NCBI GenBank assembly: GCA_030390025.1
Contig: CM059432.1
Coordinates: 33,110,001 to 33,174,000, forward strand
Direction: 5' to 3'
Origin: Squalus acanthias
Lineage: Eukaryota
DNA length: 64,000 nucleotides
Shown here: positions 45,746-51,271 of the stretch, piece after piece
How positions within the stretch are numbered: position 1 is the first letter of the stretch
Layout: each line of letters opens with the position of its first letter
Notes under the pieces: model-generated
The model's database searches: none
The model's input: the letters and a program-made list of their open reading frames with translations, nothing else
Told to the model about the DNA's origin: nothing
Translations under genes and position numbers: made by a program

Positions 45746-46333
45746 TCCAACAATGTTGGGAAGGCAATCTTTTGACGAAGTGAAGGACCTTCCAAAAATC
45801 ACTCTCGGGAGTTCAGCTCAGCAAAACAGTAGCCAGAAATAATGGCCCAAAAATTCGGCCGTTCCCGCGTGAGTACGTATTCCTTCCCGAAGTGCCGGTT
45901 TCCTGCATGCACTGCGCATGCGCGGGAAACCGGCACTTCCGGTGGCTTCAAGTAAAGGTTTCTTCGGTGAATCGCGTGCGCCGGAGAGTCTGCGCGTGCG
46001 CAATGAACTTGGCTTTTTTTATGAATGGTTTGAGTGTGTGTAAGATCGCAGCAATTACACTTGTAAAAAGCTTGAGTAAACCATCTTGGAAAGCTCCGTA
46101 ACCAGCAGGAGGAAGAAATCTTTCAGCAGTGGGGCTACTAAAGTGAACATTTTTAAATCTGAAAGGCAGCAAAGTTTATTTAATAAGTCTGAGGTAAGTT
46201 TGCAATTTTAAAAAAAGTTTTAAAACGGGTTTTGACCATTTGGAGTAGTCTAGCAACTCTGGGTGTGTACAAGGCCTATTGAATTAGGTTTCTGTCTTAA
46301 ATGTGAAAATGACTGTTTAAAAAAGAAAATGAT

Positions 46334-46527
46334 TGTCGTAAGAATGAGCCTTACGCGTGGTGAACTTAAAGTAAGCTTTAATCAACTAAAAAGGTGCTAC
46401 ATACAAAAGAGGTCTTACTCTATGCCTCTCCAGGATCCAACTGATCAGTCCAGTATTTATCCTGGACTAATCACAGGAAGTAATGCAATAAAGTTCGAGT
46501 CACAGAAAGCTGTATTGTGTTACCACA
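46334..46527 (-). repeat. 3' LTR of Gypsy element 2
   Basis: Direct repeat of 50561-50754. Confidence 0.97.
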
Positions 46528-46546
46528 TTCTCCCCCCCCCAAAAGA

Positions 46547-49500
46547 TTAGGAGGCCGGGATGCTCCCTCCATTTCGTAGCCGCTGGACGAGGGAGAGCCG
46601 CACCCGTTTGGGTTCTCGTAGCGGTAGAGGGCCCCTAGCCCGTTTACCTGCCGCGGGCCGTGGACCAGAGTCCGAGGGGTCAGGACGATCCTGACTGTGT
46701 ACTGGTGCCCGAACGGGTGTCGGGCAGGGCTGTGGCAGATCCATTTCCGAGCGTACGGTACGGGGTGGATCGTGGCTGCGCGTGCGAGCCCCGACGGGCT
46801 CATAGTCAGTCTGCCCCAGGTCGGCACGCTGGAGTGAGGTACCAGCCGGCGTCACATCCAGATCGTGATGAGAGGCACCTGGCGAGCCCAGAGATGTGCC
46901 TGGTACAATATCATCCCCTGGTGTCCCTCTATGTTTCGGCGGGCAGGGAGCCAGATCCCGCAATGACACGGTAGATTCCCGACCGTCAGGATACCGAATA
47001 TAGGCGTAGGTCGGGTTGACGTACGTGAGCTCAACCTCATCTACCAGGGGGTCATTCTTAGACGCCCGGACATATCTTCGGAGTAGCACTGGTCCCGGTG
47101 CAGTCAGCCACGACAGGAGAGATATCCCATAGGATGAGCGACGCTGAAATCGGAAGAACCGTTCATGAGGCGTCATATTTGTGGCGGTCGAAAGGAGGGA
47201 CCGTGTGGAGTGTAATGCGTCTGGAAGTACTGCTTCCCATTGCTGGTTGGGTAGGCCCCGAGATCTCAAAGCCAGACGTACCGCTTTCCAGATGATAGCG
47301 TTAAAACGCTCGACTTGCCCATTCCCGACCGGATGATAAGGCGTCGTTTTGCTGGCAGCAATACCCCGTTCCGAGAGATAGGCCTTGAGTTCTCCTGACA
47401 TAAAAGAAGGGCCCCGATCCGAATGAACATAGGATGCCATGCCACAGAAAGCAAATACCTGCTCAAGGCAGCTGATAACCGTGGTCGTCAGCATATTGGG
47501 GCAGGGAAAGGCAAACTGAAAACGGGAATACTCATCGACCATGGTCAATAGATAAGTGTTGCGAGTTGAAGAGGGCAACGGCCCCTTAAAATCGATGCTA
47601 AGCCGTTGCATTGGCTGGGTCGCATGTATGAGTATACCACCCGAGGGGCGGAAAAACTGAGGTTTCAATTCCGCACAGACTCTGCAGTCCGAGCACATCT
47701 TCTTTACATCCCCGGTAGAGAATGGGAGATTTTGGGACCGCACGAAGTGTAGCATGCGAGTAACGCCCGGATGACACAACCCATCATGGATGTCTACGAG
47801 CGTAGAGGGTGCCATGGCGGAGCAGAATGCTTGTGTGAGGGTATCCGGAGCCACATTCTCCTTGCCAGGTCGATAGTGGATGGTGTAACCAAAAGAGGCC
47901 AATTCCAGCCGCCAAAGCTGGATTTTATTATTTTTAATTTTGGTCCGTTTTCGATTATCGAGCATGAAGGCGACCGATCGCTGGTCCGTGATTAAGGTAA
48001 AGTGCTGGCGAGCTAGGAGATGACTCCACTTCCGTACTGCCTCTATGATGGCTGTAGCTTCTTTCTCGACTGGAGGATAATGTAGCTCAGCCCCTTGAAA
48101 AGTCCTGGACAAAAATGCCACCGGACGACCTTCCTGATTCAGAGTGGCCGAGATCGCCACCTCCGAGGCATCACACTCAACAACAAAAGGAAGACGCTCA
48201 TCGATGGAGTGAAGAGCCGCTTTCTCCAACTGTTTTTTCAGGAGGTTAAAGGCTGCAACAGCCGCTGTGTCCAGTGGGAATGTGCTGGCCTTCAGTAGAG
48301 GTTGGATTCGGTCCGAGAAGTTAGGAATCCATTTAGCATAGTATGCAAACAGGCCGAGGGCCCGGCGCAAGGAGGCCGGATTCTTAGGTGGCGGGAGTTC
48401 TTGGAGTGGGCGAAGCCTTTCAGGGTCAGGTTTAATGATGCCATTGCCCACACAATAGCCAAGGATGTTGATGGTTGGTTGTGACTCAATGGATTTAGCC
48501 GCATTTAATGTCAAATTACGGTGCTGGAGTGCATCCCAAAATCGTTGGAGATTGGCGTCATGTTCCCGCTGATTGCGACCTGCGACAGTAATATTGTCCA
48601 GATAAGGAAACGTATCCTTCAAGTCTTCCTGTTTGACCAGGTCATCCATTGCTCGCTGGAAGACAGCCACTCCATTAGTGACCCCAAAGGGGAGGCGACT
48701 AAATTGATACAGCCGTCCATTGGCTTCAAAGGCCGTATACTGCTTGTCTGAGACCTTCAAGGGTACCTGATGATAGGCACTTTTCAGATCATATGTTGAG
48801 AACACCGTGTACTCAGCCAGTTTATTAACCATATCATCGATGCGCGGCAATGGGTATGCGTCCAAGTCCATATATTGATTGATGGTCTGTGAATAGTCAA
48901 TGCACAGCCGTTTCTTGTGAGGTTGTAGAGGGTTCTTAACAATAACGACCTGGGCGCGCCATGGCGACGAACAAGGCTCGATGATATCCTCTGCTAAAAG
49001 CCGAGAAATCTCAGCCGCAATAAAAGACTGGTCTTCCTGGCTGAAACGTCGTGACTTTGTTATAATCGGTTTGCATCGAGGAGGGATACTGGTAAACAGT
49101 GAGGGTTCATCCAGTGAAGCTGCTGACAATGCACAGAACGGTAATCGAGGTAGTATATTAGAAATAGTGAGTTCAGGTTTGGATCCGCCGAACTCAATGG
49201 TGAGCTTCTTATGCTGCTTTTGAAAATCCAGCCCTAAGATAAGATCACTACATAAGTTCTTGAGCACCGAAAGCCGGGTGGAGGGATACCTGTGACCATT
49301 AAGTGTTATTTCAACCATACAAAAGCCAGAAATTCTGGTATTAAGTGATGACTGAGCCATCGCAATTGCCTGGTCCGATGGGAAAACATGTAGCTTTAAC
49401 TCTGCAACAATCTGTTCCCTAATGAAACTATCAGTGCTACCTGAGTCAATTAAGGCATCTAAAGTATGTCCATTAATTGATGCTTTTGTAGCTGCATGGA

Positions 49501-50482
49501 ATAGGTTCTGAGGACAAGCAGCTGTAATTGGTGTCGTTGCACAAAGAGTGGCTGAAACTCTAGGTGTGTTTCTTCGAGAGGAAACCCGAGAGGAAGCACG
49601 ATAGATTTTAGCCGGAACATCTTGATAGGCCCTTACCGGGGCAGTTCGGTAGGACTTAGCTTGATAAGCCCTCGTAGAGGCTCTTGATAGGCAAACCTTT
49701 GCAAAATGACCCTTTTTGTTGCAATGACTGCAAAACGCATTGCGAGCAGGGCAGAATTTCCGAGGGTGAAACTCATCACCACAAAAGAAGCATTTCTTAG
49801 ATTGCCAAGAGGCTGCCACAGTGGGGTCATCATCCTCTTCATCAGTGAAGTCATCAGATTGATCGTCAGGGATAAAGTCCTCCCTAATAGAGTTCACCTG
49901 TGGCCTCTTAAATTGCCTGACTGTAGTTAAGGCAGTAGACCGAGGTCTGGGCATTGTATAAAGGTCTGCATTTCTTTTTGCCAGATCTAGAGAGCAAGCC
50001 ATGTCATAAGCTCTCTGAAGCTCAAGTATCTTACTTTCCAGTCGACGCTGGCGTATAAATGGGGAGGCAAGCCCGCAGATGAAAGCATCATGGATCATTT
50101 TTTCACGGTACAGCTCAGCTGAGGCCGCCTGAAAGTTACAGTCCATACTAAGTCTGCGAAGCTCTTGGAGGAATTTATCAATGGATTCCTCCGGCCCTTG
50201 TTGGGCTGTAGCTAGTAGATGTCTGGCATAGACCTCATTCGATGTCTTAGTATATAGTCTCTTAAGCGTCCGAATTGCCTCCTCGTAACTGCCCCATTCC
50301 TCCACATACTGAAATACATTCGGGGTGACACAGTTGATGAGTATCCGCAACTTTGAGTCATCATCAGCCTTGCAATATTCAAGAAAATTGTCAAACGTGC
50401 GATACCTGTGTTTCCACACCTTACCGGCTACTGGGGTGTTTGGGTCCAAGTCAAGACGCAATGGTTTAAGGATGTTTTCCAT
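46547..50482 (-). CDS. gag-pol polyprotein, 1311 aa
   Basis: Double zinc knuckle CFFCGDEFHPRKFC and CSHCNKKGHFAKVC; protease LIDSGS; RT LPFGVTNG...YLDNIT; RNase H ECDASE...EKEA; integrase H..HPG..C..C, IDFKGP, HSDRG, GNGQVERFN. Confidence 0.96.
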   Translation of the reverse strand: MENILKPLRLDLDPNTPVAGKVWKHRYRTFDNFLEYCKADDDSKLRILINCVTPNVFQYVEEWGSYEEAIRTLKRLYTKTSNEVYARHLLATAQQGPEESIDKFLQELRRLSMDCNFQAASAELYREKMIHDAFICGLASPFIRQRRLESKILELQRAYDMACSLDLAKRNADLYTMPRPRSTALTTVRQFKRPQVNSIREDFIPDDQSDDFTDEEDDDPTVAASWQSKKCFFCGDEFHPRKFCPARNAFCSHCNKKGHFAKVCLSRASTRAYQAKSYRTAPVRAYQDVPAKIYRASSRVSSRRNTPRVSATLCATTPITAACPQNLFHAATKASINGHTLDALIDSGSTDSFIREQIVAELKLHVFPSDQAIAMAQSSLNTRISGFCMVEITLNGHRYPSTRLSVLKNLCSDLILGLDFQKQHKKLTIEFGGSKPELTISNILPRLPFCALSAASLDEPSLFTSIPPRCKPIITKSRRFSQEDQSFIAAEISRLLAEDIIEPCSSPWRAQVVIVKNPLQPHKKRLCIDYSQTINQYMDLDAYPLPRIDDMVNKLAEYTVFSTYDLKSAYHQVPLKVSDKQYTAFEANGRLYQFSRLPFGVTNGVAVFQRAMDDLVKQEDLKDTFPYLDNITVAGRNQREHDANLQRFWDALQHRNLTLNAAKSIESQPTINILGYCVGNGIIKPDPERLRPLQELPPPKNPASLRRALGLFAYYAKWIPNFSDRIQPLLKASTFPLDTAAVAAFNLLKKQLEKAALHSIDERLPFVVECDASEVAISATLNQEGRPVAFLSRTFQGAELHYPPVEKEATAIIEAVRKWSHLLARQHFTLITDQRSVAFMLDNRKRTKIKNNKIQLWRLELASFGYTIHYRPGKENVAPDTLTQAFCSAMAPSTLVDIHDGLCHPGVTRMLHFVRSQNLPFSTGDVKKMCSDCRVCAELKPQFFRPSGGILIHATQPMQRLSIDFKGPLPSSTRNTYLLTMVDEYSRFQFAFPCPNMLTTTVISCLEQVFAFCGMASYVHSDRGPSFMSGELKAYLSERGIAASKTTPYHPVGNGQVERFNAIIWKAVRLALRSRGLPNQQWEAVLPDALHSTRSLLSTATNMTPHERFFRFQRRSSYGISLLSWLTAPGPVLLRRYVRASKNDPLVDEVELTYVNPTYAYIRYPDGRESTVSLRDLAPCPPKHRGTPGDDIVPGTSLGSPGASHHDLDVTPAGTSLQRADLGQTDYEPVGARTRSHDPPRTVRSEMDLPQPCPTPVRAPVHSQDRPDPSDSGPRPAAGKRARGPLPLREPKRVRLSLVQRLRNGGSIPAS

Positions 50483-50560
50483 GATGGGTGATTCCCTGGA
50501 TCCTTAGTTCCAAGTTCGTCCAAAAAGTTTGAGTGCGAAGTTTTCCAAAGTTGATTAAAT

Positions 50561-50754
50561 TGTCGTAAGAATGAGCCTTACGCGTGGTGAACTTAAAGTA
50601 AGCTTTAATCAACTAAAAAGGTGCTACATACAAAAGAGGTCTTACTCTATGCCTCTCCAGGATCCAACTGATCAGTCCAATATTTATCCTGGACTAATCA
50701 CAGGAAGTGATGCAATAAAGTTCGAGTCACAGAAAGCTGTATTGTGTTACCACA
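50561..50754 (-). repeat. 5' LTR of Gypsy element 2
   Basis: Direct repeat of 46334-46527, 78 nt upstream of the gag ATG. Confidence 0.97.
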
Positions 50755-50954
50755 ATGATAATCAATTATATTCCTTTAAGTAAGTATGTATGTATGTATG
50801 CATGACTTTCTGAAAATGTTACAGTTAGAAACATAGAAACTAGGAGCAGGAGTAGGCCATTCGGCCCGTCGAGCCTGCTCCACCATTCAATACGATCATG
50901 GCTGATCATCCAAATCCAGTACCCTGTCCCTGCTTTCTCACACAGAATCCCCAT

Positions 50955-51271
50955 CGAGCCTGCACCGACACATATCCCACCCTATCCCCGCAACCCCACA
51001 TATTTAATTCCCCCTAACATATCCCATCCTATCCCCGTAACCCCACATATTTAATCCCCCCCTAACACTAAGGGTCAATTTATCATAGCCAAATCAACCT
51101 AACCCGCACATTTTTGGACTGTGGGAGGAAACCGGAGCACCCGGAGGAAACCCACGCAGACACGGGGAGAATGTGCAAACTCCACACAGACAGTCACCCG
51201 AGGCCAGATTCGAACCCGGGTCTCTGGCGCTGTGAGGCACCAGTGCTAACCACTATGCCACCGTGTTGCCC
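50955..51271 (-). mobile_element. HE1/V-SINE-type tRNA-derived SINE
   Basis: Minus-strand A box TGGCATAGTGG, B box GGTTCGAATC, V-domain gtgtggagtttgcacattctccccgtgtctgcgtgggtttcctccgggtgctccggtttcctcccacagtccaaa. Confidence 0.88.

Follow-up and report, generated by a model that had tools for sequence, protein, structure and literature searches.

The window, i.e. the whole 64,000-nt stretch of Squalus acanthias DNA analysed here (GCA_030390025.1, CM059432.1, 33,110,001–33,174,000), carries on its minus strand an intact, recently active Ty3/Gypsy LTR retrotransposon, in which the sequence at the primer-binding site (PBS) position is complementary to a segment of the element's own LTR. This LTR–PBS pairing is maintained by compensatory change across a metazoan-wide clade; such change is evidence that the pairing matters, and covariation alone leaves its function unnamed. 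Judged from the sequence, the best reading is that the pairing probably serves self-primed reverse transcription of the Tf1 type, which would replace the tRNA primer.

Architecture of the element and its copies

The element is 4421 bp (~4.4 kb) in length and has the features expected of an LTR element, that is, TG...CA LTRs, a target-site duplication and a polypurine tract ahead of the 3′ LTR (Table 1). Its pol domains follow the Ty3/Gypsy (Metaviridae) order of protease, RT, RNase H and integrase, with Pfam matches to Asp_protease (residues 333–420), RVT_1 (522–676), RT_RNaseH (763–864), Integrase_H2C2 (894–941) and rve (955–1051) along the polyprotein. We placed the LTR ends at TG...CA, giving LTRs of 194 nt, because the 5-bp ATCAT duplication flanks both of them; the 196-nt repeat returned by repeat detection is two bases too long, owing to a chance match between the duplication and internal sequence.

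Table 1. Positions of the element's features in the window, in the order of its sense (minus) strand
Feature	Position	Strand	Remarks
5′ target-site duplication ATCAT	50755..50759	(−)	identical 5 bases beside both LTRs
5′ LTR, 194 nt, TG...CA	50561..50754	(−)	99% repeat pair; ends set by the duplication
5′ arm AGTTGATTAAA, proposed self-primer, includes ATTAAA	50604..50614	(−)	within the LTR; homologous arm in relatives
Small hairpin GCUUA-CUU-UAAGU	50591..50603	(−)	directly 3′ of the 5′ arm; from folding
Second hairpin CGUAAGG-CUCAU-UCUUACG	50564..50582	(−)	at the LTR end; from folding; 7 bp, one G–U
Single spacer A	50560	(−)	between the terminal CA of the LTR and the PBS; same spacer in most relatives
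3′ arm TTTAATCAACT, proposed primer-binding site	50549..50559	(−)	complementary to the 5′ arm
gag-pol, single open frame, 1311 aa	46547..50482	(−)	two CCHC knuckles, protease, RT (YLDN), RNase H, integrase; no chromodomain
Polypurine tract GGGGGGGGGAGAA	46528..46540	(−)	adjoins the 3′ LTR; comparable tracts in relatives
3′ LTR, 194 nt	46334..46527	(−)	2 differences from the 5′ LTR
ATTAAA arm copy in the 3′ LTR	46377..46387	(−)	candidate working poly(A) signal
3′ target-site duplication ATCAT	46329..46333	(−)	same 5 bases as on the 5′ side

The host genome (3.7 Gb) contains at least 1258 candidate copies of the LTR–leader stretch, and all 40 copies that were scored, out of these 1258 first-look candidates, are 98–100% identical. 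Sequencing runs filed under five other organism codes contain 47–73% of the element's sampled 31-mers (runs X1–X15; 46332–50754), which indicates that near-identical copies exist in several taxa, either because these are close relatives of the host or as a result of horizontal spread. In contigs from two other organism codes (X1 and X5), which inform on presence and variants rather than on transcript ends, the arms are unchanged, and differences occur at seven further positions across the 501-nt stretch; run X9 yielded 0 contigs. One X5 contig that matches 50550..50614 and then diverges was considered as a marker of the U3/R border and rejected, its loose end aligning upstream of the arm with several changes, as in a diverged subfamily.

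The element was inserted into older repeats. On the minus strand, a G-rich unit (..gggggattaaatatgtggggtt[ag]cggggatagg..) occurs just upstream of it (50860–51100) as two near-repeats, together with a stretch resembling a common interspersed repeat.

Pairing between the LTR and the primer-binding position

The complementarity of 11 nt between the PBS position and the LTR, described in an earlier note on this DNA, is confirmed: TTTAATCAACT (50559..50549) and AGTTGATTAAA (50614..50604) are perfect reverse complements, and the duplex is exactly 11 bp long because the neighbouring bases fail to pair at both ends. Since the duplication fixes the LTR end at 50561, a single A (50560) separates the LTR from the 11-mer at the PBS position. 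The arms enclose a loop of 44 nt, which holds two hairpins (50603..50591 and 50582..50564); the second of these is the inner hairpin of the earlier description, and proved real, with CGUAAGG and UCUUACG forming 7 bp including one G–U pair.

When the LTR was subjected to mononucleotide shuffling, with the site anchored 0–5 nt after the LTR, a complement of at least 11 nt arose in 11 of 20,000 shuffles, and an inverted repeat of such length was found in none of 100 shuffles of the 176-nt leader. Folding of the RNA, proposed as a check alongside the original observation, gave −15.4 kcal/mol for the 75-nt RNA (z = −3.3), a value equalled by 2 of 200 shuffles; the fold of the whole 275-nt stretch is unexceptional (z = −1.6).

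Search for a tRNA-type primer site

That the element is without a tRNA PBS, as the earlier note had also stated, holds for the window copy, which has no TGG-type site directly at the LTR border, and for all 30 other genomic copies that were compared, each of which has the same leader; none of the 30 carries the normal TGG PBS that would have counted against self-priming. Both arms are intact in 28 of these 30 copies. The two exceptions, L022 with a substitution in the 5′ arm and L023 with an insertion in the 3′ arm, reflect decay and were rejected as evidence on the pairing. The 30 copies are too alike to serve for covariation analysis within the family, and this approach was set aside.

Priming at or near 50559..50530 by a cellular RNA, whether a whole tRNA, one of its halves or fragments, or some other small RNA, appears very improbable. 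Such a primer might use the TGG that lies 13 nt after the LTR (50546..50544), and the tRNA screen, which could have revealed a partner, covered Lys and Cys genes only. However, this TGG reads TGA in genomic copy L019 and in the main variant of X1 and X5. Canonical tRNAs have C61, and the 3′ end implied by the downstream TGG would give an A there. No exact match to the required T-loop plus 3′ end was found in the genome, and a search allowing 1–2 mismatches returned 176 matches versus 273 for the reversed control. Moreover, the site varies by family, each time fitting the family's own LTR; it tracks the LTR and so cannot target a conserved cellular RNA.

An Rfam tRNA search of the genome gave 63 matches, which lie in tandem clusters. 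ARAGORN, run on 30 of these loci, identified Lys(ttt) and Cys(gca) alone; none of the recovered tRNAs is complementary to the leader over 6 nt or more, in a set that is too small for this result to count. No tRNA was detected by ARAGORN in the window.

Conservation of the geometry among relatives

A protein search identified full-length relatives with 50–66% identity, some of them from shrimp, copepod, isopod, whipworm, tunicate, soft coral and anemone, the hosts among the listed homologues including cnidarians, protostomes and deuterostomes. DNA of relatives was taken from 80 metagenome-contig loci and from 11 loci in records filed as bacterial metagenome-assembled genomes (MAGs). The metagenome relatives, with 40–68% protein identity, keep the pairing geometry with letters that vary by family. 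In relatives with two LTRs, an LTR segment ending in ..TAAA is located 24–68 nt before the site, and this segment is complementary, over an arm length of 11–18 nt, to the bases beginning 0–1 nt after the CA of the LTR.

An unbiased scan of the 170 nt before gag revealed an inverted repeat of at least 11 nt at 20 of 33 start sites (L045, which is too short, and L115, whose start is off the contig, were left out); each of the 20 repeats was reached by 0–1 of 100 shuffles, and ..CA(A) precedes the 3′ arm in every case. When 32 loci were scored with the site anchored, 21 proved to pair perfectly over 11–18 nt, seven had 1–2 mismatches and four showed no recognisable pairing (L066, L089, L090 and L094), the leaders of these four being decayed or truncated. 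In L099 and L108 the site fits the 3′ LTR version of the arm, so the mismatch reflects later decay of the 5′ LTR. A double change is seen between the two mutually closest relatives: L044 has CAAGTTGATTAAA in the arm and TTTAATCAACTTG in the site, whereas L039 has CAAGTTTATTAAA (in both LTRs) and TTTAATAAACTTG, such that a G in the arm and a C in the site of L044 correspond to a T in the arm of both LTRs and an A in the site of L039. In minimum-energy folds of 18 families, 11 have a compact hairpin that begins 0–2 nt past the 5′ arm.

The gag ATG lies 1–28 nt past the 3′ arm in the pairing relatives, leaving no space for a tRNA site. This proximity of the stem to gag, along with the additional hairpins predicted in the loop and the silence of covariation as to function, would also suit a leader structure for packaging, dimerisation or translation control, with priming by some other, unknown route. 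We consider this improbable, since the 3′ arm is positioned exactly at the LTR border and the 3′ end of the 5′ arm is directed towards U5, a primer geometry that such a structure would not need, and since no alternative primer site is present.

Two features of the database records for the relatives were observed. Full or partial copies of this animal retrotransposon clade are present in bacterial-MAG records (L111–L118, L120 and L121) with titles naming Hyphomicrobiales, Rubritalea, Ekhidna, Cyclobacteriaceae or simply ‘bacterium’; these are eukaryotic DNA binned as bacterial. Contigs L041, L045, L057, L112, L031 and L111 show circular permutation or carry the same sequence at both ends, within the coding region, and span pol, one LTR and gag in this order, as would result from assembly collapse of the LTRs or from one-LTR circles.

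Covariation of the two arms

The earlier note had proposed that relatives be inspected for compensatory changes, and these are indeed seen. In a MAFFT alignment of 24 sequences, with one locus per near-identical group (L048, L062, L068 and L075 were dropped; the decayed L038, L074, L077, L079, L099 and L108 were retained), both sides have changed in 12 of the 15 pairs, with 65 cells showing compensatory change. Pairing was observed in 92.9% of 351 cells, versus 72.1% in shuffles, with coordinates picked via the best complement, which introduces a bias toward pairing, and with a row (L112) that MAFFT misaligned and that, being left in, counts against the structure. None of 500 shuffles reached any of the five covariation measures, and shifting the partner by 1–3 columns reduces pairing to 27–49%.

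These results bear on the simplest alternative, i.e. chance complementarity in AT-rich sequence. Both arms are AT-rich, as this explanation would have it, but its probability is negligible given the rarity of such complements in the LTR shuffles, the recurrence of the geometry in 28 of the 32 anchored loci, and a level of covariation that no shuffle matched; chance is refuted by the anchored scoring and the covariation.

Proposed mechanism of self-priming

In the mechanism that we propose, the R segment of the genomic RNA, AGUUGAUUAAA (50614..50604), would fold back across the 44-nt loop, with its two hairpins, and pair with the 11 nt beginning one base past the LTR (50559..50549). The RNase H of the element would then cut directly 3′ of the paired segment, after ..UUAAA, as in Tf1. 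Because the 3′ end of the arm points into U5, such a cut would free a 3′-OH there; extension of this new 3′-OH via the spacer A and U5 would give strong-stop DNA of ~45 nt, which is predicted to transfer to the 3′ R.

The self-priming advanced in the earlier note is supported by the pairing, by its position, by the lack of a tRNA-type site and by the compensatory conservation of the pairing, whereas the presence of the arm in the transcript (ideally at the 5′ end), the start of the transcript at the arm, the RNase H cut and the priming itself are steps that we infer. Raw RNA run X16 gave 0 reads on 50350–50850, a result that carries no weight as a test of these steps. The sole TATA-like motif of the window LTR, GATAAATA, is located ~75 nt, rather than ~30 nt, upstream of the arm, and across 21 families no TATA was found at a constant distance from the arm. 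Consequently, the RNA may, unlike that of Tf1, begin at a point further upstream, and the arm is perhaps not its very 5′ end.

Possible overlap of the 5′ arm with a poly(A) signal

The last six bases of the 5′ arm are AATAAA or ATTAAA in the window element and in L031, L039, L041, L044, L045, L070, L105, L108, L111 and L112; arm ends in the other families are one-letter or non-canonical variants, for example GTTAAA, CTTAAA and AATTAA. The copy of the arm in the 3′ LTR (46377..46387) is unpaired because no PBS follows there. The 3′ end of the primer may therefore double as a poly(A) signal that the pairing would mask in the 5′ copy, leaving the version in the 3′ LTR accessible. A comparable arrangement is known from the HIV-1 leader, where, in the 5′ copy of R, the poly(A) signal is paired within a local hairpin and priming is by tRNA-Lys3; in the window element, by contrast, the partner strand would be the PBS itself.

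The earlier note had suggested that the pairing hides ATTAAA, either instead of or in addition to priming. The suggestion is compatible with the A[AT]TAAA-like arm ends of many families; as the sole role of the pairing it falls, because no other primer site exists. A related possibility, that the pairing mainly masks the poly(A) signal in the 5′ R so that the 3′ copy is used, with something else acting as primer, would account for the AATAAA/ATTAAA arm ends and for the lack of a complementary site after the arm of the 3′ LTR. It is nonetheless unlikely: no alternative primer site is present, relatives have gag close behind the 3′ arm, and this arm is fixed 0–1 nt after the LTR end, i.e. at the primer position, which occlusion does not need; in addition, several families have non-canonical hexamers (GTTAAA, CTTAAA, AATTAA). 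As a function added to self-priming, masking of the poly(A) signal is quite possible.

A wider reading, which we put forward tentatively and with some doubt, is that a chromodomain-less animal Gypsy clade, with members in a shark-like vertebrate, a tunicate, crustaceans, a nematode and cnidarians, has exchanged tRNA priming for self-priming, a single segment of 11–18 nt acting as primer, poly(A) signal and 5′ silencer. The body of the arm would be the primer, its A[AT]TAAA 3′ end would serve the 3′ LTR as poly(A) signal, and in the 5′ copy this signal would be silenced by the arm–PBS pairing. Since plus-strand synthesis copies the primer, every cycle would homogenise the arms, which would account for the ease of paired change.

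Relation to known self-priming elements and placement of the clade

Self-priming has been demonstrated experimentally for Tf1/Tf2 of S. pombe, and the window element resembles these in the 11 nt beside the 5′ LTR that pair with the element's own R, in the orientation of the primer 3′ end towards U5, in the single gag-pol frame and possibly in the stem-loops that folding places between the arms. In Tf1, according to the account in PMC7175516, bases 1–11 of the RNA anneal to the PBS, and the RNase H cut falls between bases 11 and 12. The compact hairpin that follows the arm in 11 of 18 families recalls the U5-IR-like structure that Lin and Levin (1998, cited in PMC7175516) reported for Tf1. There are also differences: Tf1/Tf2 are fungal chromoviruses with a chromodomain, whereas the clade of the window element is without one; in Tf1 the RNA opens with the 11 nt of the arm, whereas the place of the window element's arm in its RNA is our proposal; and the relatives of the window element, unlike Tf1/Tf2, have arms of 11–18 nt that end in a poly(A)-signal-like hexamer.

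The earlier note overstated its case in so far as self-priming is no novelty in vertebrates: PMC6317226, citing Butler et al. (2001, J Mol Evol 52:260), ascribes self-primers to the ‘Tf1/Sushi group ... from yeast and vertebrates’. The vertebrate members of this group (sushi-ichi and kin), for which self-primers are thus described, are Ty3/Gypsy elements like the window element; according to PMC6317226 and PMC2774666, they are chromoviruses, whereas the window element has no chromodomain. For the latter, no Pfam match was obtained in the last 250 residues of the polyprotein at E values up to 10, none of 26 aligned proteins (the window element and 25 relatives) has a Chromo match, and PF00385 is in none of the 120 homologues listed. 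The chromodomain at the integrase C-terminus by which the Tf1/sushi group is defined is thus not present, and on this ground we do not file the clade under Tf1/sushi.

In plants, the Tcn1 clade of Gypsy and the TAR clade of Copia are predicted self-primers (Neumann et al. 2019, PMC6317226), identified there by complementarity to the 5′ LTR over no fewer than 10 bp, beginning 0–5 bp past its end; Tcn1, like the Tf1/sushi group, belongs to the chromoviruses. In the window element the complementarity extends over 11 nt and begins 1 nt past the LTR, and the element shares with the plant elements, as characterised in that paper, the lack of a tRNA match; the plant elements belong to other clades or superfamilies and other hosts, and neither is an animal non-chromoviral Gypsy.

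Steamer and the Steamer-like elements of bivalves (Mag lineage, C-clade) have a similar build, with one gag-pol frame, ~4.8 kb in length, LTRs of ~180 bp and aquatic hosts (PMC11046912, PMC8905726). Steamer is described as having a TGG-type tRNA-Leu site directly after the LTR (PMC8905726), and MchSLE1 as having a putative tRNA-Asn site (PMC11046912). Unlike these, the window element is without a tRNA site, the LTR being followed by A and then by TTTAATCAACT. The host range of the clade fits that of the Mag cluster as described in PMC2774666, which is only a lead. The Gypsy-clade papers PMC6238403 and PMC2774666 contain nothing on the primer sites of a matching clade.

Implications

Self-priming is already known, including from vertebrates, as the published accounts cited above indicate; what is new here is its probable occurrence in a clade of another lineage, as the absence of a chromodomain indicates. 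The open-access papers searched contain no account of self-priming by an animal Gypsy clade that lacks the chromodomain. Self-priming is usually presented as a quirk of the Tf1/sushi chromoviruses and of a few plant and fungal clades, while here its signature is borne by a very successful young family and also by relatives from many animal phyla. This would make tRNA-independent priming in animals more widespread than annotation pipelines assume. LTR finders that require a tRNA PBS will misjudge such elements, and host defences aimed at the tRNA PBS, e.g. 3′-tRNA fragments, could not hit a clade that primes itself. With young, near-identical copies, the transcript start and the primer should be directly measurable in native tissue.

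Further features of the polyprotein

The C-terminus of the polyprotein (46550–46900, minus strand) has a Pro/Arg/Ser-rich tail ~100 residues longer than in most relatives and with no Pfam match. In P0073, the closest listed relative with the tail region (81% identity in the alignment), the tail is even longer and consists in part of repeated units.

The RT active-site motif of the window element is Y-L-D-N rather than YXDD. The same is true of 21 of 26 aligned relatives, with D-D being present in five. The second Asp of YXDD is normally regarded as catalytic, and an Asn at this position in a thriving clade is odd.
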